This document shows positions 1,148-60,697 of a DNA stretch of 64,000 bases, one piece after another. The notes below the pieces were generated by a model. That model worked only from the letters and a program-made list of their open reading frames with translations. It ran no database searches and had not been told where the DNA came from. Origin of the DNA: Squalus acanthias (Eukaryota); assembly GCA_030390025.1 (NCBI GenBank), contig CM059432.1, positions 26,104,001-26,168,000 on the forward strand, read 5' to 3'. Position 1 is the stretch's first letter, and each line of letters begins with the position of its first letter. The translations under genes and the position numbers were made by a program.

Positions 1148-1345
1148 ATGTGCCGCAGAGAGATGAGGAGGGACATCGGGGCTCTCAGCAGGAGGCCTTA
1201 CCCTCTGAGGGTATTCCGAGAGCACTTCTACTTTCAATTAAGCGAGGAGCAGTGTATTAGATGGCTCCGCCTCACCAAGAAGGTGGTCACAGAACTCTGC
1301 CACCTCCTCCAAACAGACCTCCAGCCTCACACTAGGATGACTTAA
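1148..1345 (+). pseudogene. Harbinger (HARBI1-like) transposase N-terminal fragment
   Basis: RRPYPLRVFREH..LSEEQCIRWLRLTKKVVTELCHLLQTDLQP is typical of Harbinger transposase N-termini. The DDE core is deleted. Confidence 0.7.
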
Positions 1346-1505
1346 AGCCCAGATCCCCTTTGCTCACCACATCCCCATCATTCCATCCCTCTTGCAGGCC
1401 GTATCACGCCGCAAAACTGAAATGACAGACACCACAAAAGAATGGTAAGTGAATTAATAAATTTATCAAAAATCAGTGAACACATATTTACAACAAAAAT
1501 ATTAA

Positions 1506-3410
1506 CTATTCACCCATGTGCAATCCCTTAGTGCCTCTCGTTACTGTGCCTTTGTCTACTCTAGTGATCCTACAAAATGTTGGCCCAGTGGCTGCAGCAC
1601 GGCTGGTGGAAGGCTGTTGAGTGTCCGTGCGAGAGACTTCAGATGGCCTTGCAGGACGTCCTCGACCAGTTCTGGACCTGGAAGGCCTGGCTGTAGGCTG
1701 CACCACCTCAGCATGGGCAGCAGCAGTCTGGGCTGGCTGGATGATAGGCAGTGACAAAGGCAATGGAGGAGTGGCAGTGGTGGGAGCAGGAACGCTGTCA
1801 TCCTGAGAGAGGACAGCAGGTTCCTGCTCCACTGACCCACTGCCACTCGCCCAGGGCAGCACCTCAGCATTCCTAGCAATCTGTTGGAGCACAGATTGCT
1901 GGCCTGCTGTGACACCGTAAAAGTCCCGGTCAACAGTGGTAGACCCAGCCACAATGACAGCAGTCAGCGCTTGCGTGGAATCACACTGAGACTGCGTGAG
2001 AGCAATCGGAGATTGGATGCCACCAAGCATAGGCTGCATTACAGCACAAAGTCGTTGCGTCGCTTCTGCCTGTGCTGCAATGTAAGCTGTCAGATCGCGC
2101 ATGACACGCGGCATCAGGTCTGGGCCGCCACAGTCTCTCTGGGAGTCTACCATACTTTGCAGACTGGAAATTATGGGCTCCATGGTGTGCGCAGAGCCTT
2201 GTGCAATGTTGGAGGTGGACTCCTCCACGCTCCTTACCATTGCCGAGACTCTCTCGGACACCCTTGCCATTGCACCTATCATCTCCGTGTGTATGCCCAT
2301 CACCCTTCTAAACGCCTCCCCATTGAGGTCCTCATTGAGTCCTGTGCAGCAAAGCTCATGCGCGAACTCACCCTCCAAGGAGCTGGCCCCCCGAGCTACC
2401 CTTTCCTCCTGGCCTTGCTGCAGCCCACTCGTCCCCGGTGTGTCACCCTGTGCAGCTCCCACTACTATACTAGCCTCTAAAGAATGCGTAGTGCCAGTAT
2501 CTGAGCTGGTGTCTGCGGGTGAGAGATGCAGTGATGCGGTGTGTGCTTCCTCCTCCTCTTCTCCCGCATCGCTCTCTACAGTGCCTTCAGGGACAGGCTG
2601 CTCAGGTGCTTGCTCATTATCAGAAAGCATAAAGGCACAAGAGTCGGGTTAAGGTGAGGGGAGGGGGGCAGGAAGGGATAAATGCATGCACGCAGCATGA
2701 TTAGCTGGAAAGTGCGAAACGCTTGTGGGGTGAGGGGGAAGTGGGATGTGAGAAGAAGGAGTAGGGATGAACATACCGTTGTTATCCCCAAGGGGGGTCA
2801 ACGTCTCTGGTGGCCACAGTGCCCACCACCTGGCGCTCAATGATCTGCAGCACTCGATTCTCCGGTACAGACAGTGGTTGGGTGTCGGCTTGTCCCCCGT
2901 CTGTGCGCTCCTGCTCCCTCCTGTTGTGGGCCACCTTGACCTGCAAGATAAAGGAAAGTGTGTGAGTGAGTGCGGAGCAATGTGTTTGGGTGATGTGCCT
3001 GTCATAGTTGAATAGCTGTCAGTGTGTGCAAGGCGTAAGATGTGGGTGTGAGTGTTGGTAGATAGAGATTGTTGGTGGGTGAGTGCTGGGAATGTGATGC
3101 TTTGGGCAGTGTGTGAAGATTGTGGTTCAGATGGTGGTATGTAGCATTTGGTGAAGCCTTCACTCACCCTGACCACCCAAGTGAGGCTGTTACATTTCTT
3201 CCTGCACTGTGTGTGAGTCCTGGAGACCACACTGCTGCCAGAGATGTGCTGCACTACCTCTCTCCTCATGGTACAGAAGACTTGTGGTGAGGGCCTCCTG
3301 CCACTTGCCGGGTAGAGCACCTCCCTCCATCTCTTCACAGCGAAAACCAATGCCTCCAATGCTTCATCAGAGAATCTGCGGGCTCTCTCCCTGGGGCGTG
3401 GATCTGCCAT
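1506..3410 (-). pseudogene. Harbinger Myb/SANT-like DNA-binding gene, three exons (3168-3410, 2777-2940, 1506-2620), disabled
   Basis: Exon 1: MADPRPRERARRFSDEALEALV...RTHTQCRKKCNSL with GTGAGT donor. Exon 2: VKVAHNRREQERTDGGQ with AG acceptor and GTATGT donor, plus a 1-nt frameshift in the G6 run at 2792-2797. Exon 3 is an acidic/coiled-coil ORF whose acceptor appears mutated (ctttCTG). Confidence 0.75.
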
Positions 3411-4182: not shown

Positions 4183-5458
4183 AGACAGGCTGGTGGAATG
4201 GGCGGACACGTGGCAGATGAAATTTAACGCAGAAAAGTGCAAAGTGATACATTTTTGTAGGAAGACCGAGGAGAGGCAATATAAACTAAAGGTACAACTC
4301 TAAAGGGTTTGCATGAACAGAGAGACTTGGGGGTATATGTGCACAAATTGTTGAAGGTGGCAGGCAGGTTGAGATAGAGGTTAAAAAAAGCATATGGGAT
4401 CCTGAGTTTCATAATTAGAGGCATAGGGCTGGATTTTACTTACCGAGACGAGTTGGGGGCGGGACTGCTGCCTTCTGGGTTCTAGTCCCGCCCCCCAGGG
4501 ACGTCCGACGCACAGACGCTATTTTCCCCTGATTGGTCTTGTTAAGCCCGCCCTGCTGACTAATTAAGGGAAAGCCGGTGTCTGATGACGTCAGTTGATT
4601 ACGCTTCATCTGCCGGTTTTCTTAAAAGGGACATGAAACATTTATTTTTGACAGATGATTTGACAGTGTTTGACAGCATTGAGGTGCTGTCAAACACTGA
4701 CAATCACTGTACAAAGGTGAGCCCTTGCACCTAGGCTCTCCAATGACTCTCTCCTTCGGATAAAACAGATGGCAGCTGCAGGTGAGGGTACAGAAGCGAT
4801 CTGTCACGTCTCCCAATGAGGTGAGGCCACACAAACACTTCAAAGCTTGTCACCTACAGAAAAATCTAAACACATTAAAAATGACTTTCCCAACATTTCC
4901 TTACCTCTTATACTCACCAGTGTCCCATTGCATCCTTCACACCACTCCTGCAGCTGTCATCTATACACAAACATTACAACAGACCCACAGCATGCCTCAC
5001 TTATCCTGGCGGGGTTTACCGACGTCGGGAAGCCCGCAGCAGAAGTTGCAAAATGGGAAAAAGCCTCTTAACTGCCTGTTAACAGGCAGTTAAGTGGCTA
5101 TAATCCTCTTCCTGCCACTAGGAGTCGGGTCCCTGCGCAAATTGGGGACCTGACCCCCGGGAAGATTGGTTGGAGGCGGGTTGGGAGCGGGTTGGGGACA
5201 CGCTTCCATTCTTATTGATTTTCCCAGCAGTCCCGCCTCCAACCCTGCCTCCTCAGGGCTGGTAAAATCCAGCCTATAGAGTACAAAAGCAAGGAAGTTA
5301 TGAACCACCTTTATAAAATACTGGTTCGGCCTCAACTGGAGTATTGTGTCCAATTCTGGGCACCGCACTTTAGGAAGGATGTGACGGCCTTAGAGAGGGT
5401 GCAGAAAAGATTTACAAGAATGGTTCCAGGGATGAGGAACTTCAGTTATGTGGGTAGA
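4183..5458 (+). mobile_element. CR1 LINE RT C-terminal fragment, split by a MITE
   Basis: Encodes 'LYKILVRPQLEYCVQFWAPH'. Removing the MITE restores ggcATAgagtacaaaagc. Confidence 0.85.
4426..5275 (-). mobile_element. Harbinger-type MITE (family A, reverse orientation)
   Basis: TIR gggctggattttac / gtaaaatccagcct. 3-bp TSD ATA at 4423-4425 and 5276-5278. Confidence 0.88.
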
Positions 5459-7517: not shown

Positions 7518-8590
7518 CCAAGGATCTATCCTTGGCCCCCTCCTATTTCACATCTACATGTTGCCCGTTGGTGACATCATCCGAAAACACAGCGCAGTTT
7601 CCACATGTACGCTGACGACACCCAGCTCTACCTCACTACTTCTTCTCTCGACCCCTCCGCGGTATCTAAATTGTCAAGACTGCTTCTCCGACATACAGTT
7701 CTGGATGAGCAAAAATTTTCTCCAATTAAATATTGGGAAGACCAAAGCCATTGTTTTCGGTCCCCGCCACAAACTCCGTTCCCTAGCCACTGACTCCATC
7801 CCTCTCCCTAACATCTGTCTGAGGCTGAACCACACTGTTCGCAACCTTGGTGTCATATTTGACCCTGAAATGAGCTTCCGACCACATATCCGCAGCATAA
7901 CAAAGACCGCCTACTTCCACCTCCGTAACATCGCCCGTCTCCGCCCTTGCCTCAGCTCATCCGCTGCTGAAACCCGCATCCATGCCTTTGTTACCTCTAG
8001 ACTTGACTATTCCAATGCACTCCTGGCTGGCCTCCCACATTCCACCATACGTAAACTTGAGGTCATCCAAAACTCGGCTGCCCCTGTCCTAACTCGCACT
8101 AAGTCCCGTTCGCCCATCACTCCTGTGCTCGCTGACCTATATTGGCTCCCGGCTAAGCAGCGCCTCGATTTCAAAATTCTCATCCTTGTTTTCAAATCCC
8201 TCCATGGCCTCGCCCCTTCCTATCTCTGTAATCTCCTTCAGCCCCACAACCCGCCCCCACCTCCCCCCCGAGATATCTGCGCTCCTCCAATTCTGCCCTC
8301 TTGAGGATCCCTGATTATAATCGCTCAAGCTTTGGTGGCCGTGCCTTCTGTTGCCTAGGCCCTAAGCTCTGAAATTCCCTGCCTTAACCTGTCCGCCTCG
8401 CTACCTCTCTTTCCTCCTTTAAGACGCTCCTTAAAACCTACCTCTTTGACCAAGCTTTTGGTCACCTGCCCTAATTTATCCTTATGTGGATCGGTGTCAA
8501 ATTTTGTGTCTTAAAATACTCCTGTGCAGCGCCTTAGGACGTTTTACTATGTTAAAGGTGCTATATAAATAAAAGTAGTTGTTGTTGTTG
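7518..8590 (+). mobile_element. L2-clade LINE 3' fragment
   Basis: YADDTQLY motif, 'HAFVTSRLDYSNALL', (gtt)n tail. Confidence 0.88.
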
Positions 8591-9495
8591 TCTCTCTCTC
8601 TCCCCCCCTCCCCCCAGTCTCTCTCTCCCCGTCTCTCTCTCTCTCCTCCCGTCTTTGTCTCCCTCTCCCAGTCTCTCTCTCCTCCAGTGTCTTTCTCTCC
8701 CCAGTCTTTCTCTTTCCGTCTCTCTCTCTCTCCCCCAGTCTCTCTCGCTCCCCAGTTTCTCTGCCTCTCTCTCCCCCAAGTCTCTCACTCTCTCCCCCAA
8801 GTCTCTCACTCTCTCTCTCCCCCAAGTCTCTCACTCTCTCTCCCCCAAGTCTCGCTCCCCAGTCTCTCTCTCGCTCTTTCCCCCATTGCGCTCCCTCTCT
8901 CCCCAGTCTCTCGCTCCCTCTCTCCCCAGTCTCTCTCTCCCTCTCTCCCTCTCTCCCCAGTCTCTCTCTCCCTCTCCCCAGTCTCTCTCTCCCTCTCTCC
9001 CCAGTCTCTCTCTCCCTCTCTCCCCAGTCTCTCTCTCCCTCTCTCCCCAGTCTCTCTCTCCCTCTCTCCCCAGTCTCTCTCTCCCTCTCTCCCCAGTCTC
9101 TCTCTCCCTCTCTCCCCAGTCTCTCTCTCTCCCTCTCTCCCCAGTCTCTCTCTCCCCAGTCTCTCTCTCCCTCTCTCCCCAGTCTCTCTCTCCCTCTCTC
9201 CCCAGTCTCTCTCTCCCTCTCTCCCCAGTCTCTCTCTCCCTCTCTCCCCAGTCTCTCTCTCCCTCTCTCCCCAGTCTCTCTCTCCCTCTCTCCCCAGTCT
9301 CTCTCTCCCTCTCTCCCCAGTCTCTCTCTCCCCAGTCTCTCTCTCCCTCTCTCCCCAGTCTCTCTCTCTCCCTCTCTCCCCAGTCTCTCTCTCTCCCTCT
9401 CTCCCCAGTCTCTCTCTCTCCCTCTCTCCCCAGTCTCTCTCTCTCCCTCTCTCCCCAGTCTCTCTCTCTCCCTCTCTCCCCAGTCTCTCTCTCCC
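8591..9495. repeat. CT-rich minisatellite, unit about ccagtctctctctccctctctcc (about 23-25 bp)
   Basis: Direct reading. A similar tract at about 7358-7515 lies on the other side of the L2. Confidence 0.95.
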
Positions 9496-9867
9496 CTTTC
9501 GATCCTCTCTTCGCCCCCAGCCACCAACAGATCCAGTTCTCCCACAGAGCTGAAGACAATGTGGCCACGCTGTAAGGCCGCAACTGTTTTAATGCGCATG
9601 CGCGGCCTCAGTAAACAGCCTGCATGCGCAGAAGGGGATCGGGTGCGCATGCACAGCTCTGGGACACCGCGCGCATGCGCAGAAAGCCGCAAAAATGGTC
9701 GTATGGATAATCACAGTGTTCACATTCAGTACTTCAGGGCCAGGCATGTAGCAGGCATGCGTCGAAATCTGTTCCAGCGCGCAGTCGCCGAAGCCCGCTT
9801 CTGAGTGCCTAAAGAACGAGCCTATAGGACGCGATTAAAAAGAGTGCCTGTGCGCTGGAGCCTGCTT

Positions 9868-11482: not shown

Positions 11483-12330
11483 AGTACTCTCACTCTTTGG
11501 GGGGAATTTTAACTTTTGGATCAGGATTGGCTTCCAGTCAGCCGGGGAACGCTGGAGAAGAGGCCGCAGCCCCAGGTACATCCGATCCCTGAGGGAGGTG
11601 GTGGGGGAGGGGGGGGGGGGGGAGATCTGGGAGGAAACACTCCTGCTCCTCCTGGCCCACAAGGAGTGCTCCCCGAGGCTGTCCTCGCCTTGCTGTAGCT
11701 GCTGGGATTTCCGAGGCCTGGGAACACCAGCCGGCCACAGTTTAACTTGAAAAGCAGGTTAAATCCGAGGCTTCCAGCCTCATTATCATATTTAAAGTGT
11801 CAAAACGCCTCCTGGGAGCAAGTTGGTTGCCTCCCCCCCACCCTGTTCCGCCTCCATTAAAACCGGAAGTGAACTGGTTGGGGTTGGGATTCAGATTTTT
11901 AACATTTTAACCTCCCGTCCATCTCAAACCCGCCCATTTTCTGGAGTTAAAATTCCCCCCTTTGAGTCAGAAGTAGATTCAAGCCCCATGACAGACATAA
12001 TCTAGGATGACATTTCAATGCAATATTAAGGCAGCTGGGCTTGTTGGAGGTGCCAATTTTTCAGGTGAGAAATTAAACCAAGGCCTGCTCAGGTGGACGA
12101 AGAGTAGGAAATTCTCCCCATATCCTAGCTAATACTACTTCTTCAGCCATCATCACAAATTAAAAACATTCAATTTGCTGTTGTGGGATCTAGTTGTGCA
12201 CAAATTGGCTGTTGTTTTTACCTAATAAACAATGACTGTACTTTAAAAGTAACCCATTAGTTGCCAAGTGGTTTGGGAAGTCCTGAGAGCACATTAGGGC
12301 ACTATATAAATCTAAATTCTTTCTTTCTTT
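11483..12330 (+). mobile_element. Degenerate DeuSINE-like SINE interrupted by a MITE
   Basis: 'actctcactc|tttgagtcagaag..attcaagccc' and the 3' 'gggcactatataaatctaaa(ttct)n' parallel the SINE at 6505. Confidence 0.65.
11499..11960. mobile_element. Short Harbinger-type MITE
   Basis: TIR ggggggaattttaact / agttaaaattcccccc. TSD TTT at 11496-11498 and 11961-11963. Confidence 0.88.
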
Positions 12331-21787: not shown

Positions 21788-22056
21788 ATGCGGAGAAGCC
21801 GGTGTTGGACTGGGGTGGACAAAATTGAGAGGTCGCACAACACCAGGTTATAGTCCAACAGTTTTATTTTAAATCACAAGCTTTCGGAGTTAAAACTCCT
21901 TCGTCGGGTGAAGTGAGGAGATACAGAATCGTCAAATGCTTTGACGATTCTGTATCTCCTCACTTCACCCGACGAAGGAGTTTTAACTCCGAAAGCTTGT
22001 GATTTAAAATAAAACTGTCGGACTATAACCTGGTGTTGTGCGACCTCTCAATTTTG
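21788..22056. mobile_element. Penelope-derived non-coding hairpin insertion carrying two hammerhead-like motifs
   Basis: 12-bp TSD acctcccctatg (21776-21787, 22057-22068). Arms 21820-21936 and 21940-22056. Same terminal sequence as the GIY-YIG-linked insert at 54340. Confidence 0.85.
21965..22002 (+). ncRNA. Minimal type I hammerhead ribozyme-like motif (core variant CCGACGA); mirror copy at 21874-21911 on the minus strand
   Basis: TCAC CCGACGA A GGAG ttttaa CTCC GAAA GCTT GTGA: stem I TCAC/GTGA, stem II GGAG/CTCC, palindromic AAGCTT at helix III. Confidence 0.65.
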
Positions 22057-27096: not shown

Positions 27097-28156
27097 CATA
27101 GAGTCATAGGGCTCAATTTTCACCGGCCCGTGGAGGCGGGAGTGGTGTGAAAATAGCAGATTCGGGGGTCCCGAACCCATCCCGCCCCCAACCTGCCTCC
27201 ATGCCAGTTTCCCAGGAGGCGGGTACCCGACCTGTGCTGGGACCCGCCTCCCCGAGGCAGGAAGGGGATTAGTGCCAATAAACTGCCTGTTAACAGGTAG
27301 TTAACAGGCAGTTTTTTGCCTAATCCCTATTTTTAGCCCTGAAGTGTGGGCTTTCCGACAGGGCTGAACCATGCCGATTTAGCGAGGCGGACCGTCGGTA
27401 TGGAGGGCTTGGAGGGGTCGAGATGTCCGGTGTGCAGGTGAGTGATGGGTGCATGAGTGCAGAGGTAAGTGTGTTTGGTGTGTGTAAAGTGTTTTAAGAA
27501 CTTTTACTTACCTTAACTTTGTCCTGCAGGCTAGCTTCCTTAAGGTGTCGGGAGTCCCTCACATCCACGGCACAGAAAGCAGAATGGCTGCGGAGCTGTC
27601 AAAAGCTGCAGTCTCTGCTTTCTGTGCTGGATTGATTTCTAACTGAGTCTAAGTACAGGGACTCAAGTTAGAAATCATATTGTCAGTGTTTGACAGCTTC
27701 ACAGAGCTGTCAAACGCTGAAATTTCATCTGTCAAAAGCTCTTGACAGATGAAATTTCAATGGCTGACGTCACCTGTATCCAAGGGACCCTTGATTGGCC
27801 TGCTAAGCCCGCCCGGCGTGCTTAACAAGGTCAATCAAGGGAAAATACAGTGGGTTGGCCACAAGTTGATGGAGGCGGGACTACAACCCAAAAGTGGGAG
27901 TCCCGCCTCCATCATGTCCCCATTGACAAAATCCAGCCCATAGAGTTATACAGCACAGAAAGAGGCCCTTCGGCCCATCGTGTCCGCGCCGGCCATCAAG
28001 CCCTGTCAATTCTAATCCCATTTTCCAGCACTTGGTCCGTAGCCTTGTATGCTATGGCATTTCAAGTGCTCATCTAAATGCTTCTTGAATGTTGTGAGGG
28101 CTCCTGCCTCTACCACCCTTTCAGGCAGTGAGTTCCAGATTCCAACCACCCTCTGG
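27097..28156 (-). mobile_element. Short 5'-truncated CR1 3' end (same subfamily as the 20318 copy), split by a MITE
   Basis: 27943-28156 is nearly identical to about 20330-20542. Confidence 0.85.
27109..27939 (+). mobile_element. Harbinger-type MITE (family A)
   Basis: Ends gggctcaatttt / aaaatccagccc. TSD ATA at 27106-27108 and 27940-27942. Confidence 0.88.
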
Positions 28157-30794: not shown

Positions 30795-32370
30795 GGGGGG
30801 AATTTTCCAGGGGGTCAGCGGGCGCGATCGGTGGCGGGTCGGGTGGGAAAATTTTGTTTTTTGACAGCGGGTCGGGATTCCGCTGTCAACCCATCACCAC
30901 GCACCTTTCACAAATGTCGGGTCTGTCAGCGTTGAGCAGACCCGACACGCAGCGGCGGGGGAGGCAATTAAGGTCATTATGACTCTGTTAACACAGCATT
31001 AAGAACTATATTCAGCTCACCTTCCGTGTTTACCAGGTCGCCCACGGGGTCCACACTGCTCGGGGATCATGTCAGGTAAGCAGGGCCTGAGTTGAATAGC
31101 CATGGAATCAACTCAATGCCTGACAGCTGCAAATGTGCTATAAAAGCTCCCATCTCACAGCTGTTCACTTTCCAAGCTCAGAAGCTGTTGCTTACTGCAT
31201 TTGGAAGACAGATTGAGCTTTATGCAGATTACAAGTGTTTGGAGCAAACTCGCTATCCTTAGTCACCTCATTGGAACAACCTCTCTCACCACTGACAGAT
31301 TGCTTCTGTCATCTCAAGTTCACCTGCCATCTATTACATCAGAATGGGTACGGTTTATACTTGGTCCTCAGAATCCCACCACGATCATCCCCAACACCAG
31401 CAGCACCAGGCACACCAGCAACACCAACAACCTTCTCTGCAATCAACTGATGCTGCACAGGACATCAGCACCCGACCACATTGCTGCCTGGGAGGCCAGG
31501 GATGGCCTCATTATGGCCAGATTTACTGCACTTGAAGCTGGACACCCTAGCTGCCACATGATGTGCCAGGTTGGCAACACCCCACACCAACACCATAAAG
31601 CATCCCTATAATGCTCAAGCCATTCCTTTCACACTCATCACCATTGTGGGGGGTACCGTTATGTCTGACAATTCACTGCAATTCACTAAGCCACTTCCAA
31701 AGGTGCACACAAATCTGTCCAAGAACGCAAAGTGTTGAAAATAACGGTTTCAATGTTTGACAGCACCTTAACAGAAACTTTGCATGAACATTGCATAAAA
31801 CACCCACGTGCCTACCCTTGTGTGTTGTTAGTTGGTATGATTGTACGAGGATGAGAGTTAGTGTGAGGGGTGGCTAGTGAGATGGGGAAGTGATAATGTA
31901 GATAGAGAGGGATGGCTGGAGGTCCAAGGTAAGTTGGTGTGAGTAAGGATGTGCAGGAGTTGGGAAGGAGTGATGTGGATGTGATGAGTGGCACAGCAGG
32001 ATGAGGTTGAGTGTGGCTTTGTACTAATGTTTCGTGATCATTGAAAGGTTTGGGAGAGCCTGGGTGCAGCCATGCACCTTTGTGCAGTGCTTGTCAGTGT
32101 TTGCAGCACCTTAATGCTGTAGAGCACGGACAGCACAAATGTCAAAATAATTTTGCGCATGGTCCCTTTAAGGAAACTAGCTGATGACGCGTCATCAAAT
32201 GACGTCATCAGACCCGCTTCCTTCAATTGGCCGGCAAACGCGCTGGGCTGGCTTAACAAGCCCAATCGGGAAAAATCATTTTTGACAGCGGGCTGGAGCT
32301 GGCAGCGAGGCTGGGACCCGCCACCGACGTCGCCTGCCCCGGACCCGCCGAGATTAGTAAAATCCAGCCC
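30795..32370 (+). mobile_element. Longer non-autonomous Harbinger derivative (related to family A)
   Basis: Ends ggggggaatttt / aaaatccagccc. TSD TTA at 30792-30794 and 32371-32373. Confidence 0.82.
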
Positions 32371-34179
32371 TTAATGTTTCTCTTTAAATATTGGGCAAAC
32401 ATAAATGACTGCCTGCAGTAATGCTGTACATTTCACATTGGTTTAAGGCATTGCTTTCATTAGTCTTTATGCTTTGTGCTACTTGGTGTTAAAACAGCTT
32501 ACATCAATTTCTAAAGTTCTCTAACGTCTACACACCTGAATTCTACACTAGACATCGCTGAGATGAGACCTTACACATGATCATCGCAAACTACAAGAAT
32601 ATTTCTTCCTTGCTGTTAAATTGATCCTTTTCTTTCCTCAAGGATATTTCCCCATTAATGTATTATTTTTGAAAGCTGAACCAATACTCCACTGAGAAGT
32701 GGAGTATTACGTGTTAGTGGTTTCAGATGTATGGCAATTAAATAAAATAGAGCTAATGGCTCCCAAGTGCCACATTAATTTAACCTTGATCAGTACACCC
32801 ACTGTTAAATAGATGTGCTCCGAAATGTAATACAAACAGAGCATGTTATAGCCCAGTGAGTGCTGATAGCTACAGAAGATACTGCTTGTATGAAGGAGCT
32901 AAATTTACTTATACCTCTTAAAATCAGGCAGAGGAAGGCCAATAGACTGCCGAGAGATGCAAAGAGGGAACAAGAGTAATATAATGAAAAATGCGAATGA
33001 CAGCAATTCATTGTTTAAGTACATCAGGAACAAGAATGGAGTATAATTAGTGGTGGGAATCCACAGAATGGTTTATCCTGGGACTTGACTCTATGGTGAA
33101 GAGAAGAATGAGGTGTACTTGATAGAGGTCTTTTAAGGTTTTTATAAGTATGGATAATTTGAATCCAGGAAAATGTCATCCCCTTCCCCAGCCACTGCCT
33201 CAGGGTGAATCAGAACATTTGCAACTTTAGCATCCTATTCAACCCTAAACTGAGCACCAAGATTGCCTACTTTCACTTCTAACATTAGCCATCTTTGCCT
33301 CAACCTGAGCCAAGCTGCTGCTGAACCCTCATCTATGCCTCTGCCACATCCAGACTCATCTATTCCAATGCTCTCCTGGCTGGACTCTCCTCCTCTACCA
33401 TTCATAAACTTCAACTCATTTGATGCTCTACTGCCTTTATCCTATCCCACACCAAGGGGTGAATTTTAACCCCCAAAAACGGGTGGGTTGGGGTCGGGTG
33501 AGACGTTAAAATTAAAAAAAGATCTCAAACCTGACCCCAACCCACCTACTTCCAGGTTTAACACTCCTAGGGTTTGCCATTTAACTATTTGAATGAGGCT
33601 GCGTGCCTCAGATTTAACCTTTCCCAGGGCACGGGAAACCCGGCAGCTCAAGAAGGGCGAGGGCAACTTCAGGGAGAAGGTAAGTGCTTTTGCAGCACTG
33701 CTTATGGACCAGGAGGAGCAGGAGTGCTTCCCTCCAGCACCCCAAGCTTACCTGCTTCCCTTGGATCAGAACCCCCCCCCACCCCCAAAACCCATGAGCA
33801 GCTGCAGGCTCTTTACTTGCTGTGGCTGCTCTCGCCTGACAAGAAGCCAAGCCCGTCAATCAGGCGGGGATCCTGTTAAAAAAAAAGTTCAAACTCCACA
33901 GCATGTAACCCGAAACTCTGCCCAAATGAGTTCTGCTATTGTCCTGGCCAACATTCCTCCCTCCTCCACCACCACCAACTGCAGATTATTTGGTCATTCG
34001 ACCATTTGATGCTTGTGGAACATTGCTGTGGGCAATGGTTCTGTATTTGCATGTGTAACACTGACTGACGTTAAAAGTAATCAATTTATTGCAATCCACT
34101 TTGGGATGTGATGAGGTGCTCTATAATGCAAGATATTGCTTTTATTTATTTCTATTAAATCCAAAATCAAGGTAACCAA

Positions 34180-36680
34180 AAATGGCGGGGAGCCAAGGGT
34201 CTGATGAGGGTGAGGAACTTAACATAATTAATATAAGTAGAGAAAAAGTACTAGAGAAACTAATGGGACGAAAAGCCGACAAATCCCCTGGACCCGACGG
34301 CCTACATCCTAGGGTTCTAAAAGAAGCGGCTGAAGAGATAGTGGATGCATTGGTTTTGATCTTCCAAAATTCCCTAGATTCTAGAATGGTCCCACCGGAT
34401 TGAAAGGTCACAAATGTAACACCGCTATTCAAGAAAGGGAGAGAAAAAACAGGGAACTACAGGCCAGTTAGCCTGACATCAGTCATCGAGAAAATGCTGG
34501 AATCCATTGTTAAGGAAGTGGTATCAGGGCACTTAGAAAATCATAACATGATTAGGCAGAGTCAACATGGTTTTATGAAAGGGAAATCGTATTTGACAAA
34601 TTTATTAGAGTTTTTTGAGGATGTAACTAGCAGGGTAGATAAAGGGGAACCAGAGGATGCAATATATTTGGATTTCCAAAAGGCATTCAATAAGGTGCCA
34701 CATAAAAGGTTATTACACAAGATTAGGGATCACGGGGTTGGGGTAATATATTAGCATGGATAGAGGATTGGTTAACAGACAGAAAACAGAGAGTAGGGAT
34801 AAACGGATCTTTTCAGGTTGGCAGGCTGTAACTAGTGGGGTGCCGCAAGGATCAGTGTTGGGGCCTCAGTTATTTACAATTTATATTACTGACCTAGATA
34901 AAGGGGCCAAGTGTAATGTATCCAAGTTTGCTGATGATACAAAGCTAGGTGGGACAGTAAGCAGTGAGGAGAACACAAAGGCCGCGATTTTGCCGGCGCT
35001 CAGAGGGCAGGTTTGGAGGTGGGTCAAAAGGTTAAAATTGTTTTGATTGACGGCGGGTTGCCATCCCGCCATCAACCCGCCTCCAAACAACTTTCTCAAG
35101 TGTCGGGTCCCCGATTTGCGAATGGACCCGACACCTAGCGGCGGGAAGAGGATTAAAGGCAATTACCTGCCTATTAACAGGTAGTTGCCAGCCTATTTTT
35201 AATTTTGCCGCTTCTGGCTCGGGTTTCCCGACAACCGGACACCATGCCAGGTAAGTGTGGCGTGTTGTGAGTCTGCTGTAATGTTTCTGGATTGATGACA
35301 GCTGCAGAAGTGGTGTGGAGAATCCAATATTGCACATGGTGAGTCTCAGAGGAAAGAAAATGTTGGGAACTGCATTTTTAATACATTTACACTTTTCTTT
35401 AGGTTACAAGTTTTAAAATCCATGTCCAGTGCCACCTCATTGTGAGAACCTCTCTCACCAGTGAGAGATCGCTTCTGCCACCTCACTTGTAGCTGCCATC
35501 TATTCCAGCTCATTGGAGAGCCTGGGTGCAAGAGGTCACCTTTGTGCAGTGATTGTCAGTGTTTTCAGCACCTCAATGCTGTCAAACACTGAGAAATCAA
35601 CTGTCAAAATAAAATTGTGCATGGTCCCTTTAAGGAAACCGGCAGATGATGCGTCATTAATAGGCCGGCAAGCCTGCAGGGCGGGCTTAACAAGGTCAAT
35701 CAAGGCAAATTGACGTCTGTGGGCCGGATGCAGCTGGGGGCGGGACTGGAAGCCGGAAACCACCTGACCCGCACCCAACCCGCTTCCATTAATAAAATCG
35801 CAGCCAAAGAGTCTGCAAAGGGATATAGATAGACTAAGTGAGTGGGCAGTTAGGTGGCAGATGGAGTATAATGTAGGGAAATGTGAGGTTATTCACTTTG
35901 GTAGGAAGAATAGAAAAACAGAATATTTTTTAAATGGTGAGAAACTTTCAAATGTTGGTGTTCAGAGAGATGTGGGTGTCCTCGTGCAAGAAACACAGAA
36001 AGCTAGCATGCAGGTACAGCAAGCAATAAGGAAGGTAAATGGCATGTTGGTCTTTATTGCAAGGGGGTTGGAGTATAAGAGTAAGGAAGCCTTGCTACAA
36101 TTGTACAGGGCCTTGGTGAGACCACACCTGGAGTACTGTGCAGAGTTTTGTTCTCCTTATCTAAGGAAGGATATACTTGCCTTGGAGGTGGTGCAACAAA
36201 GGTTCACTAGATTGATTCCTGGGATGAGAGGGCTGTCCTATGATGAGAGATTGTGTAGAATGGGCCTATACTCTCTGGAGTATAGAAGAATGAGAGGTGA
36301 TCTCATTGAAACATACAAGATATTGATGGGGATTGACAGGGTAGATGCTGAGAGGTTGTTTCCCCTGGCTGGAGTGTCTAGAACTAGGGGGCATAGTCTC
36401 AGGATAAGGGGTAAGCCATTTAAGACTGAGATGAGGAGAAATTTCTTCACTCAGAGGGTTGTGAATCTTTGGAATTCTCTGCCCCAGAGGGCTGTGCATG
36501 CTGAGTCTTTGAGTATATTCAAGGCTGATAGATTTTTGGACTCTAGGGGAATCAAGGGATATGGAGATCGGGCGGGAAAGTGGAGTTGAGGTCGATGATC
36601 AGCCATGATCTTATTGAATGGCGGAGCAGGCTCGAGGGGTCGTATGGCCTATTCCTGCTCTTATTTCTTATGTTCTTATG
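34180..36680 (+). mobile_element. CR1 LINE ORF2 3' half, split by a MITE
   Basis: ORFs 34182-34403, 34494-34754, 34756-35046 and 35861-36589. Tail ttcttatgttcttatg. Confidence 0.92.
34980..35805 (+). mobile_element. Harbinger-type MITE (related to family A)
   Basis: TIR ggccgcgatttt / aaaatcgcagcc. TSD AAA. The empty site restores the CR1 sequence gaacacAAAgagtctgcaaag. Confidence 0.88.
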
Positions 36681-40074: not shown

Positions 40075-41073
40075 GGGGTGCGCAATTTTAGCTCAACTGG
40101 CCAAGCGGGAAACTCAGGGAATCAAGTGAAACTTAGGGGGAATTTTCCCAGCCCTGGGGAGGCGGGACTGCTGGGAAAATGGCAGAAACTGGGAGCGGGT
40201 ACCAACCCGCCTCCGTGCTATCTTCCCGGGAGGCGGGTCCCCGACTCACGCAGGGACCCGTCTCCTCAAGGCGGGAAGAGGATTAGAGCCAATTAACTGC
40301 CTGTTAACATGTAGTTAACAGGCAGTTAAGAGGCTTATCCCCATTTTACGCCTGCAAGTGCGGGCTTCCCGATGGCTGCGAACCTCGCCAGGGTCAGCGA
40401 GGCGAGCAGTGGGTCTGCGGGGGTGAGAGGGGTCGAAAAGTCCGCTGTGGAGGCGAGTGATGGGTGCAAGTGTGGAGAGGTCAGTATGAGAGGTGAGTGT
40501 AAAGTGTTAGAAAAAGTTTACTTACCTTTGCTTCTTCCTGCAGGCTTCAACCCTTAGGGATCCGGAGGTTCCTCATCTCAACGGCAGAGATGACAGAATG
40601 GCTGCTGCATTCTCGATGCAGCAGCCATCTGCTTTCTGCTGAGAGAGAGTTTTGGTGAGCGTTCAGTACAAGGGCTCACCTTAGAACAGAGATTACCAGT
40701 GTTTGACAGCTTCTCAAAGCTGTCAAACGCTGACAATTCATCTGTCAAAAAATGACAGATGAAACGTTATACGTTGACGTCCTCTGTCACCGGCTTTCCC
40801 TTAATTGGCCGGCTAAGCCCGCAGGGCGGGTTTAACAAGGTCAATTAAGGGAAAATAGCGTGGGTTGGTCAGACGTCGTTGGGGCGGGACTGAAACCCGA
40901 AAACCAGCAGTCCCGCCCCCAACGACAAAATCCAGCCCTTAGTTTTACACCCCACCCAATATTACTCTCCAGTGGCTTCCAATGGAGAGTAAAATCGAGC
41001 GGGATGTAAAATCACCATTGTACCCGATCTGGTCAATGTACTGGCAGGCGGGTTAGGTTAAAATTGAGCCCCC
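40075..41073. mobile_element. Short MITE hosting a family-A MITE
   Basis: Ends gggtgcgcaatttta / taaaattgagccccc flank the inner element. No clear TSD. Confidence 0.5.
40136..40938 (+). mobile_element. Harbinger-type MITE (family A)
   Basis: Ends gggggaatttt / aaaatccagccc. TSD TTA at 40133-40135 and 40939-40941. Confidence 0.88.
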
Positions 41074-50517: not shown

Positions 50518-51198
50518 GGCCCGTATTTTGCGACCATAAGGGCCGTACAAGTTCCAGGTTTTCACGCGCGAAATCTTCTTGACAGACCATAGCCATCCCT
50601 GGGAAAAGGGCCTCCGCGGGCGGAGAGTTGGGATATTTGTCCAGCTTCTGCCCAGCGAATGCCCGTGAAATTCTTACGCCTGGTAAAAGCAGGTGTAAGG
50701 CCTACTTTTACCAGCGTAAGAGTTTAAATTAATATAAAAATATTTTTTTTTCAATTATTTAAACATTAAAACAATAAAATAAGTTAAGGTTATTTTTAGC
50801 CCCTTTAAAACATTTAAATTTATTTTTCAAAAAATTAAATTTTTGTTTTAAATGTTTAAAATTATATTTTAATTAATTTTAAATGTGATTTTTTTAAATC
50901 TTATGTGTCATGTTAATGTGTTTTTTATGTGATCCCCATTCATGCTTATGGGGATTCCGTACGTACGGAATCACCATAAGCATAAATGGGGATCCCCCTT
51001 CTTTCATTGGTTGGGCCAGCCCAAGTGACCCCAGGGGTGCTTGCGAACCGCCTGCGCCCCTGGGATACGTGGGCCCCTACGCATAGAGGCCCAGGAGCAC
51101 GCGTCTCCGTGGGCCCAGGACCATCAGGTAGGTTCGTAGATTTTTTGCCGTTTGGAGGCATCCGCCCGCAGGAAGCTTCAGACCACAAATTCAAGCCC
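50518..51198. mobile_element. Harbinger-type MITE with AT-rich core
   Basis: Imperfect TIR ggcccgtattttgcgacc / gaccacaaattcaagccc. TSD ATT at 50515-50517 and 51199-51201. Confidence 0.65.
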
Positions 51199-56319: not shown

Positions 56320-59300
56320 TTATCGGGGTAAGGCAGCAGCAACCAACTTCCTGGCACTATGGGTGGTTCTGCTGCACAGGAGGGGAGGAAAAAGAGCAGG
56401 AGAGCTATCGTGATAGGGGATCCTTTGTAAGGGGAATAGATAGGCGTTTCTGCGGCCGCAAACGAGACTCCAGGATGGTATGTTGCCTCCCTGGTGCAAG
56501 GGTCAAGGATGTCTCGGAGCGGCTGCAGGGCATTCTGGAGGGGGAGGGTGAACAGCCAGTTGTCGTGGTGCATATAGGTACCAACGATATAGGTAAAACA
56601 CGGGGTGCGGTCCTAAAGGCTGAATAAAGGGAGTTAGGAGGTAAATTAAAAAATAGGACCTCAAAAGGTAGTAATCTCAGGACTGCTACCAGTGCCACGT
56701 AATAGTCAGAGTAGAAATAGAAGGATATTTCAGAAGAATGGTGCAAGGGGGAGGGATTCAAATTCCTGGGACATTGGAACCGGTTCTGGGGGAGGTGGGA
56801 CCAGTACAAACTGGACGGTTTGCACCTGGGCAGGACCGGGACCGATGTCCTAGGGGGAGTGTTTGCTAGTGCTGTTGGGGAGGGTTTAAACTAAAATGGC
56901 CGGGGGTTGGGAACCTGTGCAGGGAGACAGAGGAAAGGAAAGCAAGGATAGAAGAAAAAGACAGGAAGTAGAAAAGCAAAAGTGGAAATCAGAGAATTCA
57001 AGGGTGTAAATCAAACATGGCCACAGTAAACAATAATTCTAAATGGTCTAAGAGTGTTAAAAAGACAAGCCTGAAGGCTTTGTGTCTTAATGCGAGGAGG
57101 AATCGTAATAAGGTGGATGAATTAGCTGTGCAAATAGAGGTAAACGGATATGATATAATTGGGCTTACGGAGACTTGGCTCCAAGGTGACCAAGGCTGGG
57201 AATTCAACATCCAGGGGTGTTCAATATTCAGGAAGGACAGGCAAAAAGGAAAAGGAGGTGGTGTAGCATTGCTGGTTAAAGATGAGATTAACACATTAGT
57301 AAGGAAGGATATTAGCTCTGATGATGTGGAATCTGTATGGGTAGAGCTGAGAAATACCATGGGGCAGAAAACGTTAGTGGGAGTTGTATACAGACCCCCT
57401 AAACAGGAAATTAGAGACGCGTGCAATAAGGGCACAGCAGTTATCGTGGGTGACTTTAATCTACATATAGATTGGGCTAACCAAATTAGTAACAATACTG
57501 TGGAGGAGGAATTCCTAGCGTATATACGGGATGATTTCCTGGACCAATATGTCGAGGAACCAACTAGAGATCAGGCCATCGTAGACTGGGTATTATGTAA
57601 TGAGAAAGGATTAATGAGCAACCTTGTTGTGCGTGGCCCCTTGGGGAGGAGCGATCATAATATGATAGAATTCTTCATTAAGATGGAGAGTGAAGTAGTT
57701 GACTCAGAGACTAGGGTCCTGAATTTAAATAAAGGAAACTACGATGGTATGAGGCGCGAGTTGGCTAGGATGGATTGGGGAACTTTTCTTAAAGGGTTGA
57801 CGGTAGATAGGCAGTGGCAAACATTTAAAGATCACCTGGATGAACTACAGAATTTGTTCATCCCTGTTTGGCATAAAAATAAAACAAAAAAGGTGACTCA
57901 ACCGTGGCTAACAAGGGAAATTAGGGATAGCATAAGATCCAAGGAGAGCACATATAAATTGGCCAGAAAAAGCAGCAAACCTGAGGATTGGGAGCAGTTT
58001 AGGATTCAGCAAAGGAGGACAAAGGGATTAATTAAGAGGGGGAAAATAGAATATGAGAGTAAGCTTGCAGTGAACATAAAAACTGACTGTAAAAGCTTCT
58101 ATAGATATGTGAAGAGAAAAAGATTGGTGAAGTCAAGCGTAGGTCCCTTGCAGTCAGAATCAGGGGAATTTAGAATGGGGAACAAAGAAATGGCAAACCA
58201 AATAAATACATACTTTGGTTCTGTCTTCACAAAGGAGGACACAAATAACCTCCCAGAGATGTCGGGGAACATAGAGTCTAATGAGAGGGAGGAACTGAAT
58301 GAAATCAGTATTTGTAGGGAAATGGTGTTAGGGAAATTGACGGGATTGAAGGCCGATAAATCCCCAGGGCCTGATAATCTACATCCTAGGGTACTTAAGG
58401 AAGTGGCCCTAGAAATAGTAGATGCATTGCTGGTCATCTTCCAAAATTCTATGAACTCTGGAACAGTTCCCATGGATTGGAGGGTGGCTAATGTAACCCC
58501 ACTATTTAATAAAGATGGTAGAGAGAAAACGGGGAATTATAGACCGGTAAGCCTGACATCGGTAGTGGGGAAAATGCTAGAGTCCATTATAAAAGATGTA
58601 ATAGCAGAGCACTTGGAAAACAGTGACAGGATCGGACAAAGTCAACATGGATTTACAAATGGTAAATTATGCATGACTAATCTACTGGAAATATTTGAGG
58701 ATGTAACTGGTAGAATAGATAAGAGGGAACCAGTGGATGTGGTGTATTTGGACTTTCAGAAGGCTTTCGATAAGCTCCCGCATAAGAGATTAGCGTGCAA
58801 AGTTAAAGCACATGGGATTGGGGGTAAGGTACTGACTTGGATAGAAAACTGGTTGGCAGACAGGAAGCAAAGAGTTGGAATAAACGGGTCTTTTTCCGAG
58901 TGGCAGGCAGTGACTAGTGGGGTACCACAGGGATCGGTCCTTGGACCCCAGTTATTCACTATATATATTAATGATCGAGACAAGGGAACTAGATGTAATA
59001 TCTCCAAGTTTGCAGACGACACAAAGCTGGGTGGGTGTGTGTGCTGTGAGGAGGATGCAGAGAAACTCCAGTATGATTTGGACAGGTTGGGTGATTGGGC
59101 AGATGCATGGCAGATGCAGTATAATGTGGATAAATGCGAGGTTATCCACTTTGGTGGCAAAAACATGAAGGCAGATTATTATCTGAACGGCAATAGATTG
59201 GGAAAAGGGGAAGTGCAACGAGACCTGGGTGTCCTTGTGCACCAGTCGCTGAAGGTAAGCATGCAGGTGCAGCAGCCGGTTAAGAAGGCAAATGGTATGT

Positions 59301-59940
59301 TGGCCTTCATAGCGAGAGGATTCGAGTACAGGAGCAAGGAGGTCTTGCTGCAGTTGTACAGGGTTTTGGTGAGGCCACACCTTGAGTATTGTGTGCCGTT
59401 TTGGTCGCCTTATCTGAGGAAGGATGTTCTTGCTATGGAGAGAGTGCAGCGAAGATTCACCAGACTGATATCTGGGATGGCAGGAATGACGTATGAAGAG
59501 AGATTGGGTCGATTGGGCTTGTATTCGCTAGAGTTTAGAAGAATGAGAGGGGATCTCATTGAAACTTATAAAATTCTAACAGGACTAGACAGACTAGATG
59601 CAGGAAGGATGTTCCCGATGGCGGCGGAGTCCAGAACCAGGGGTCACAGTCTAAGGGCAAGGGGTAAGCCATTTAGGACTGAGATGAGGAGGAATTTCTT
59701 TACCCAGAGAGTGGTGAACCTGTGGAATTCTCTACCACAGAAGACAGTTGAGTCCAATTCATTAAATATATTCAAGAAGGAGTTAGATATATTTCTTAAG
59801 GCTAAGGGGATCAAGGAATATGGGGAGAAAGCAGGGACAGGGTACTGAATTTGGATGATCAGCCATGATCGCATTGAATGGCGGAGCAGGCTCAAGGGGA
59901 CGAATGGCCTATCCTGCTCCTATCTTCTATGTTTCTATGT
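56320..59940 (+). mobile_element. CR1 LINE (disrupted partial ORF1 esterase plus complete ORF2) inserted into the Penelope element
   Basis: HIGTND esterase motif, 943-aa ORF2, tail ctatgtttctatgt. Penelope sequence resumes immediately after it. Confidence 0.93.
57017..59848 (+). CDS. CR1 ORF2: AP-endonuclease plus reverse transcriptase, open over 943 aa
   Basis: ETW, GDFN, SDH endonuclease motifs; QHGF, DFQKAFD, GVPQGSVLGP, FADD RT motifs. Confidence 0.9.
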   Translation: MATVNNNSKWSKSVKKTSLKALCLNARRNRNKVDELAVQIEVNGYDIIGLTETWLQGDQGWEFNIQGCSIFRKDRQKGKGGGVALLVKDEINTLVRKDISSDDVESVWVELRNTMGQKTLVGVVYRPPKQEIRDACNKGTAVIVGDFNLHIDWANQISNNTVEEEFLAYIRDDFLDQYVEEPTRDQAIVDWVLCNEKGLMSNLVVRGPLGRSDHNMIEFFIKMESEVVDSETRVLNLNKGNYDGMRRELARMDWGTFLKGLTVDRQWQTFKDHLDELQNLFIPVWHKNKTKKVTQPWLTREIRDSIRSKESTYKLARKSSKPEDWEQFRIQQRRTKGLIKRGKIEYESKLAVNIKTDCKSFYRYVKRKRLVKSSVGPLQSESGEFRMGNKEMANQINTYFGSVFTKEDTNNLPEMSGNIESNEREELNEISICREMVLGKLTGLKADKSPGPDNLHPRVLKEVALEIVDALLVIFQNSMNSGTVPMDWRVANVTPLFNKDGREKTGNYRPVSLTSVVGKMLESIIKDVIAEHLENSDRIGQSQHGFTNGKLCMTNLLEIFEDVTGRIDKREPVDVVYLDFQKAFDKLPHKRLACKVKAHGIGGKVLTWIENWLADRKQRVGINGSFSEWQAVTSGVPQGSVLGPQLFTIYINDRDKGTRCNISKFADDTKLGGCVCCEEDAEKLQYDLDRLGDWADAWQMQYNVDKCEVIHFGGKNMKADYYLNGNRLGKGEVQRDLGVLVHQSLKVSMQVQQPVKKANGMLAFIARGFEYRSKEVLLQLYRVLVRPHLEYCVPFWSPYLRKDVLAMERVQRRFTRLISGMAGMTYEERLGRLGLYSLEFRRMRGDLIETYKILTGLDRLDAGRMFPMAAESRTRGHSLRARGKPFRTEMRRNFFTQRVVNLWNSLPQKTVESNSLNIFKKELDIFLKAKGIKEYGEKAGTGY

Positions 59941-60082: not shown

Positions 60083-60697
60083 TTCGCAAATATGGCAGGC
60101 TTGCCAATGGTGCAGGGTGTCATAGACTGCACACGTGGCCCTTAGGGCACCCCATCACAACCCAGTTATTTTTGTCAACCGCAAGGGCTTCCACTCTCTC
60201 AACGTACAGCTGGTGTGTAATCACAAGGAGGAGATTTTGCATGTTTCCGCCATGTACTGTGGCAGTTGCCATGACTCATTCATCCTGCGGCAGTCTAGTG
60301 TGTCTCCGGTCTTCAATCTGCCAAACCAACTTAACGGATGGCTACTTGGAGACAAGAGCTACCCCCTGAAGACGTGGCTAATGACGCCGATCAGGAGGCC
60401 ATCAAACAAAGTTGAGGAGTGCTACAACGTCAGCCACATTTCGACCAGGTCCATCATCGAACAAACCATCGGCTTGCTGAAGATGCGATTCAGATGCCTT
60501 GACAGATCAGGTGGAGCCCTACAGTACTCAGCAGCCAGGGTCTCCAGAATGGTCGTGGTCTGCTGTGCGTTGCACAACATTGCACAGCATCATGGCTTGC
60601 AGCTTCCTGAGGAGCAAGTGGCTCAGTACATAGCCTCCTCAGATGAAGAGGAGGAGGAGAATGATGACTGAGCGGTGGTGCATCAACCAGCAGCTGT
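60083..60697 (+). pseudogene. Harbinger (HARBI1-like) DDE transposase catalytic-core fragment
   Basis: [62 protein letters not shown]. No N-terminus or TIRs. Confidence 0.88.

Follow-up and report, generated by a model that had tools for sequence, protein, structure and literature searches.

Local palindromes in a Harbinger-derived MITE of Squalus acanthias: probably inverted DNA motifs and template-switch copies rather than one structured RNA

Non-autonomous PIF/Harbinger elements such as rice mPing (from Ping), the short variants of Harbinger-Snek and the Harbinger-1M derivatives of C. inopinata are characterized by short terminal inverted repeats (TIRs), a 3-bp A/T target-site duplication (TSD), the absence of an open reading frame (ORF), and an origin by deletion from a two-gene parent (PMC9921582, PMC8437027, PMC13668399; the papers cited here and below are represented by their accessible parts). 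The element described here shares all of these traits. It differs in having eleven local stems and in the strengthening of stems from a longer relative to the short copies; nothing similar is described in the accessible parts of those reports. Zebrafish Harbinger3_DR and Harbinger3N_DR prefer a palindromic target (PMC3016246), and the Myb-like protein of Harbinger3_DR binds a 9-bp subterminal motif (PMC9710019). Repeated subterminal motifs, GC-rich and at both ends, and a palindromic target preference occur here, but the target consensus is different, an internal TGACAG palindrome lies beside the start of the Myb-like gene, and protein binding is putative.

Fold-back and long-TIR MITEs, exemplified by Goblin of Aedes aegypti, likewise contain inverted duplications, which are thought to come from template switching in gap repair, a process also proposed for MITE formation (PMC3814204). 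Goblin-type elements fold end to end or have long TIRs, whereas in the present element the stems are many, short and local and the TIR measures 12 bp. Template switching can create, extend or repair a stem in one step, introduce multi-base two-sided changes, and copy a loop into a stem, as Mönttinen and Löytynoja (2022; PMC8794818) describe for RNA genes. One-step stem change and loop-to-stem copying are proposed here for a DNA transposon, in which no loop inversion was seen. General background is given in PMC5753468 and PMC2836001. No description of internal hairpin arrays in shark Harbinger MITEs was found in the open literature, taken apart from Repbase, Dfam and supplementary files, and the family may already be catalogued in repeat databases. 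The element is of a known kind, a Harbinger MITE, with an unusual amount of local palindromy.

The window analyzed is a 64,000-nucleotide stretch of the Squalus acanthias assembly GCA_030390025.1 (contig CM059432.1, 26,104,001 to 26,168,000, forward strand); it is eukaryotic and rich in CR1 LINE fragments. The element, hereafter c1, occupies 27109..27939 (831 bp), and none of the 74 ORFs of at least 100 amino acids in the window lies inside it. Homology places c1 among the non-autonomous PIF/Harbinger transposons of cartilaginous fish, derived, as judged from its relatives, by internal deletion of a two-gene parent. Its left TIR (27109..27120, + strand) matches the right one (27928..27939, − strand) at 10 of 12 bases, and the flanking ATA (27106..27108, +) is repeated at 27940..27942 (+). 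Five copies, c1 to c5, all have 12-bp TIRs ending in ATTTT and a 3-bp A/T duplication (ATA, TTA, TAT, AAA and TTA, respectively), although only two show a strict TWA. The insertion context A-N-N-Y-[WWW]-R-N-N-T is common to six of six elements, namely c1 to c5 and the unrelated element at 11499-11960. Three copies, c1, c3 and c4 (27106-27108, 4423-4425 and 34977-34979), appear to be inserted in CR1-type sequence, and c1 seems to lie in a short tail repeat spelling the target motif.

The short copies number four in 64 kb. Besides c1, these are c2 (40136..40938, +; 75% identical to c1 over shared columns, 10 stems), c3 (4426..5275, −; 62% identical, 7 stems), which keeps the codons for APRLSNDSL, and c4 (34980..35805, +; 56% identical, 5 stems). 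Pairwise identities form a ladder: 0.75 for c1-c2, 0.72 for c2-c3, 0.77 for c3-c4, and 0.66 for c4-c5. In one sequencing run, 12,234 contigs match a 951-bp stretch that includes the CR1 flanks of c1. The earlier classification as a MITE-type family, made in a first-pass annotation, is borne out by the TIRs, the duplication, the non-coding short copies, and the Harbinger descent.

The long relative c5 (30795..32370, +), an internally deleted Harbinger, is collinear with the MITE from end to end apart from one internal block of some 690 columns. This block holds Harbinger transposase C-terminal sequence (31468-31608; E 3.7e-14 to homologue P0031). It starts with an ATG encoding MG, as in many of 45 homologue N-termini (putative transposase ATG at 31344), and at its other edge the minus strand reads MAAPRLS (putative Myb-like ATG at 32073-32071). 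Homologues of the Myb-like protein were absent from the results of an initial search, and a search of representative proteins returned 15. Against a profile of 13 Myb-like N-termini, LAPRLSNDSL of c3, a short motif, ranks second of 127,918 six-frame positions, with the window's own Myb gene first; tblastn with 27 Myb-like proteins gave no significant match in c1 to c5. On this alignment the MITE consists of the left end and the transposase promoter and leader, joined to the start of the Myb-like gene, its leader and promoter, and the right end. By analogy with the PIF/Harbinger MITE class, mobilization in trans by a transposase plus a Myb-like protein is a candidate trait of the family.

The deletion point, placed at approximately 27628..27641 by the five-copy alignment, joins the transposase side to the Myb side and separates stem 1, which lies in the transposase leader (+ strand), from stems 2-4, which lie at and upstream of the Myb-gene start (− strand). 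The stems derive from the leaders of two genes transcribed in opposite directions and brought together by deletion, so that their ordered array was no single unit in the parent.

From left to right, c1 opens with a terminal stem (27116..27154), in which the inner half of the TIR is inversely repeated 23 nt inside; 95% of its cells are paired across the copies, and its arms differ between families and co-vary. Motifs of the GG(A/G)GGCGGG type, whose orientation alternates, form a left subterminal array (27131..27261) that includes the stem 27215-27251. By analogy with Harbinger3_DR (PMC9710019), these motifs are candidate sites for a Myb-like protein. They are followed by a perfect 15-bp palindromic stem (27280..27314) upstream of the transposase leader and by a middle region (27324..27563, +) homologous to the 5′ leader of the transposase gene and its putative intron. 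This middle, local positions 216-455, is unstructured (z −0.8 to +1.0 in four of four copies folded). Splice-like signals occur in it: donor-like sites at 27435-27443 and 27463-27470, ACTTACCT at 27506-27513, and an acceptor-like CAG at 27527-27529. The donor-like CAGGTAAG that c4 (35248) and c5 (31073) keep is missing from c1 and c2, which at 27435-27530 have other donor-like sites, a strong acceptor-like site, and a ACTTACCT able to pair with AGGTAAGT (27463-27513).

Stem 1 (27570..27627) is homologous to the sequence directly before the transposase ATG of c5. It spans 58 nt with about 26 pairs, 14 perfect base pairs forming the outer part and an imperfect stem the inner one, and its loop contains, at 27593-27603, a direct 11-nt copy of the right arm of stem 3 (27704-27714). 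Stem 2 (27633..27677), of 12 plus 5 bp, overlies the dead first codons of the Myb-like gene, where the minus strand (27656-27642) reads VLRLS in c1 and APRLS in three relatives. Stem 3 (27684..27719; 15 pairs, one of them T·G) is a palindrome split in two, each arm containing TGACAG, and lies upstream of the start of the Myb-like gene on the minus strand. Stem 4 (27718..27759), also upstream of that start, formed where c1 and c2 lost a segment of 25-28 nt in which three relatives have a TATA-like T/A run. Beyond the four stems lie a promoter-like region of the Myb-like gene (27765..27841) with a stem at 27788-27841, and a right subterminal stem (27867..27914) of 16 perfect bp with two inverted GGAGGCGGGACT motifs. 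The promoter-like region, whose function is presumed, includes TGACGTCA at 27765 and ATTGG at 27794.

All four consecutive stems that the first-pass annotation reported in c1 are thus present, stem 4 with 18 perfect base pairs where 14 had been given. The stem quoted for the copy at 40136 (40598-40628) exists as a homologue of the inner part of stem 1, but not of the outer arms quoted for c1. The reported swap of the innermost pair of stem 3 was recovered, with T-A in two and A-T in three of the five copies. Stem 3 is present at 35557-35591 as stated, except that one base is lost and pairing is imperfect; the loops of the copies at 4664 and 35557, described as different, are identical in element orientation.

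A strand-symmetric finder returned 11 stems in c1, the four included, whereas 60 dinucleotide shuffles gave 0.85 on average and 5 at most; a chance origin was rejected on this comparison. The other seven lie at both element ends, which likewise eliminates any structure special to the four. The five copies, 4,886 bp in all, contain 23 perfect arms of at least 10 bp, against 17 in the remaining 59,114 bp, a 16-fold excess; two CR1 copies, each about 3 kb long, have none. The whole element folds with z −20.6 on the + strand and −24.0 on the − strand (20 shuffles per strand). All stems are local, with loops of 5-38 nt; given these, the unstructured middle 240 nt, and the lack of a whole-element or long-end palindrome, a fold-back MITE was rejected.

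Arms do change together. In the right part 13 of 85 pairs carry two-sided changes, as do 17 of 63 on the left (30 of 148 in total), and 0 of 500 per-pair shuffles reach either value; the count comes from five related copies with the structure taken from c1, and the shuffles ignore relatedness, so the figure is not a probability. The earlier claim of covarying arms therefore stands as far as these shuffles go. For the right part, RNAalifold returns an unfavorable covariation term (+9.04). Two-sided changes are just as clear outside the four, in the TIR-linked and subterminal stems. Of the four, only stem 3 is conserved in all five copies (97.3% of cells paired), and it is conserved by sequence: 9 of its 15 pairs are invariant and one is two-sided. 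Pairing in the c1 register across the five copies amounts to 52-61% for stem 1, 63% for stem 2 and 69% for stem 4, so that no single structure is conserved across the family. These values, and the descent of its stems from two opposite gene leaders, do not support a reading of the ordered array as a unit.

Stems 1, 2 and 4 were gained within lineages. All three are weak in c3-c5, and the parts that are perfect differ between c1 and c2. From c1 to c5, stem 2 has 19, 11, 11, 8 and 6 Watson-Crick pairs, and stem 4 has 18, 11, 12, 7 and 11. The four-stem fold on the + strand strengthens from c4 to c1 (z −4.3, −5.2, −10.5 and −15.3), and the CpG observed/expected ratios (0.52 and 0.61 in c3 and c4 versus 0.50 in c1) do not mark c3 and c4 as more decayed. 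This ladder is drawn from five copies with the root assumed at c5.

Parts of the stretch occur in 20 of 24 listed sequencing runs with several organism codes, and 12 runs contain at least half of its words. None of these runs is listed as RNA, which is no evidence on expression. The contigs of four of these runs were aligned to the stretch, three being RNA by guess only, with detail available for 40 of 96 variants and 32 of 14,426 pieces. Those of all four runs cover all 30 element bins, and depth across bins correlates between the RNA-guess runs and the DNA run (Spearman 0.76-0.85), contig depth being no measure of copy number or of the ranking of parts. Over 86-127 nt, contigs from organisms A and H differ from c1 by 0-1 letters, which implies that the c1 subfamily is young or well kept. 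Of the 40 listed variants (96 in total), 10 fall in stems, against an expected share of 320/831 (p 0.10), and two pairs have both sides among the 40 listed, with phase not given; one of them is a CpG decay pattern. Among the 12 listed joints, none has GT..AG ends, and seven leave the element at 27701-27737 and resume at 27788-27826, with loss of part of stem 3, stem 4 or both. Since one of these occurs in two organisms, there are variants that lack stem 4 and part of stem 3. No begin or end places within the element were listed, and contigs would not show them. Two contigs of 710 and 643 nt, both from RNA-guess runs, extend past the right end into other sequence. One DNA contig joins the right end (27940) to the left end (27115) with 32 letters between, which suggests tandem neighboring copies in a genome.

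Several motifs recur in the element family. GGCGGG (46 in the window versus 9.8 expected) and TGACAG (63 versus 39) cluster in these elements in alternating orientation, and TGACA/TGTCA occurs seven times in c1 (8.4 per kb versus 2.6 in the window). Because the core of stem 3, TTGACAGC, is found within the c5 subterminal motif, a host TALE-class factor or the element's own Myb-like protein could read it. TGIF1, a TALE-class factor, binds TGACA, and stem 3 equals the palindrome reported for it, split by a 6-nt spacer (PMC6158717); the spacer alters the geometry, and the element's own Myb-like protein is an equal candidate.

Taken together, these observations are best explained, with a probability of about 0.6, by inverted DNA binding motifs combined with arm-to-arm template-switch copying, not by one structured RNA. 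The stems would be DNA palindromes of two origins. Some would be inherited pairs of inverted protein-binding motifs (GC-rich subterminal, T/A derived from the TIR, and TGACAG beside the Myb-gene start), kept at the sequence level and probably read on duplex DNA by a Myb-like protein or a host TALE-class factor. Others would have arisen by lineage-specific arm-to-arm copying through template switching, probably during gap repair of excision sites, a process that would perfect or extend any quasi-palindrome and leave two-sided changes that look compensatory. The ordered array would then be a by-product of the deletion junction. The suggestion of a protein-binding scaffold is plausible for DNA, and its structured-RNA half is unlikely.

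This combination fits the perfection of stems 1, 2 and 4 in different parts of c1 and c2, the mostly invariant stem 3, the two-sided changes outside the four stems, and the rise in folding with no matching sign of decay in c3 and c4. The alignment of c5, with its transposase remnant and Myb-like start motif, and the seven joints that trim stems 3 and 4 agree with it as well. The stem 2 that overwrote dead codons, the segment loss at stem 4, and the stem-3 copy in the loop of stem 1 correspond to patterns listed for template switching (PMC8794818). Since template switching during DNA synthesis makes and repairs stems in one step, two-sided changes do not imply the conclusion originally drawn from them, that pairing has been selected. 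Loop inversion, a hallmark of the process, was not seen by eye in the five-copy alignment, which counts against it, as does the reliance of the ladder on five copies and an assumed root. The CR1 copies lack such arms, so this copying would have to act on DNA transposons specifically or depend on quasi-palindromes already present.

Strand asymmetry bears most directly on the RNA alternative, namely that a + strand transcript from the retained transposase promoter folds its four stems into a scaffold or decoy for the Myb-like protein or the transposase. Because an RNA fold should favor G·U on one strand, G·T and A·C mismatches were compared. The whole element folds alike on both strands, the count in the c1 register is 18:16 (left 8:7, right 10:9), and there is no bias over all stems in each copy's own register (15:9, p 0.31; 8:8 outside the four). 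Within the four stems, the own-register count is 7:1 on the + strand (p 0.07; register-dependent and a second look), which is the main result against the preferred DNA-level reading, would also fit single-stranded DNA, and, if real, concerns the strand opposite to the Myb mRNA that originally held stems 2-4. The 15-pair core of stem 3 has four one-sided G·U and no A·C, three of the four c1 stems and stem 3 of c5 fold better on +, and the four-stem segment does so in four of four copies folded, which are not independent. Further points on the RNA side, some of them also against the DNA-level reading, are the splice-like signals just upstream of stem 1, the two-sided changes above shuffles, and the full coverage of the 30 bins by contigs of runs guessed to be RNA. 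Yet three of the four stems are lineage-specific, the array joins two opposite transcription units, no listed joint resembles a spliced one, and the 710- and 643-nt contigs leave the right end as read-through or DNA would. Rfam gave no match at the gathering score in the window (nine sub-threshold), which also excluded a tRNA, a SINE or another Rfam RNA, and the RNAalifold term is unfavorable. Cut-and-paste transposition has no RNA intermediate. Such a transcript is decidedly unlikely. Lower still, and hardly credible, is stem 1 as a nascent microRNA or siRNA precursor formed when copies are read through in host transcripts: its fold on + is strong (−42 kcal/mol, z −7.8), but the matches to miRNA models are weak and far below gathering scores (best 27.8 bits versus 70), the stem sequence is subfamily-specific, and stems 2-4 have 17-18 pairs, which is short for miRNA precursors.

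Selection could instead have acted on DNA folding itself, if hairpin-rich MITE lineages were excised, synapsed or gap-repaired better and hairpins accumulated with miniaturization. This is unlikely. The monotonic gain from c4 to c1, the 16-fold arm excess, the local stems of the window's other Harbinger-like families, and the new, perfect stems 1 and 2 on dead leader and coding sequence with no recurring motif are all in its favor, but neutral template switching predicts the same pattern, and variants without stem 4 and part of stem 3 persist in two organisms. Internal sequences affect mPing mobility, an effect that the accessible part of that report credits to GC content without mention of hairpins (PMC9921582). 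Inverted protein-binding sites alone, co-evolving with family-specific Myb-like proteins and with no arm-to-arm copying, would account for the motif arrays at both ends and for TTGACAGC in the c5 subterminal motif. Their sufficiency is very improbable: the 12-18 bp perfect arms include spacer sequence, and the outer part of stem 1 and stem 2 have no recurring motif and overlie dead codons.

A broader and rather unlikely conjecture is that in Harbinger MITE lineages of sharks new hairpins arise on the remains of dead genes and are selected because a folded single strand raises the copying rate; that strand may be DNA during excision or the repair of gaps, or else + strand RNA made from the transposase promoter that was kept. 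Were the hairpins selected, a cut-and-paste element would show a structure-level replication advantage, visible as a hairpin ladder from parent to youngest MITE, and this would help explain why some MITEs out-copy their parents, a long-standing question. If instead template switching on inverted binding motifs is correct, the family would be a clean case of false compensatory change, in which a DNA transposon passes a covariation count with no RNA function, and a natural high-copy record of template-switch mutation. Candidate binding sites for the Myb-like proteins of shark Harbingers follow from the alignment of the MITE with the two gene leaders, and the apparent abundance of the family across several species makes the selection question testable by computation alone.

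Other Harbinger-related sequences lie in the same window. A DDE_Tnp_4 transposase fragment occupies 60126..60668 (+; E 6.1e-34), and a two-gene remnant of another family (1154..3410; termini undefined) shows a convergent layout of its transposase piece (1154-1342, +) and its Myb/SANT-like gene (3410-1506, −). The top named relatives of the window's Harbinger transposase and Myb-like proteins are from sharks and rays. The Myb-like gene has two introns and a stop-free last stretch of 380 codons, and it shares 37-47% identity with proteins of sharks; the transposase paired with it breaks off after about 1342. Other MITE-like elements, which differ in sequence and have local stems of their own, are found at 11499-11960, 33457-33890 and 50672-51064, the first two with a TIR-linked terminal stem.

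Pattern scans of viral contigs gave 0, 1 and 0 stretches, the single match (L001) being a chance match in a phage-like gene. Scans of metagenome contigs gave 0 and 1; the one hit, L002, has no Harbinger protein match and is not clearly a family member. This unrelated contig of 36%-GC-like composition contains, at 720-935, a stem-3-like palindrome (901-929) and TGACA/TGTCA sites (about 855-900), preceded by ACTTACCT twice, a pyrimidine tract and CAG, in the order seen in c1 and c2. Its likeness to c1 and c2 may reflect chance, convergence or distant kinship. The region lies between 15-bp inverted ends (133-147 and 1386-1400), presumably hAT-like.

Three further repeats were noted in the window: a perfect palindrome of 79 bp (3-nt loop) within a larger inverted repeat of 125 nt (21858-22018), an array of about 1 kb with a 23-nt pyrimidine-rich unit (8560-9560), and a 958-codon stop-free CR1 endonuclease and reverse-transcriptase frame (56972-59848), which marks a young LINE copy.
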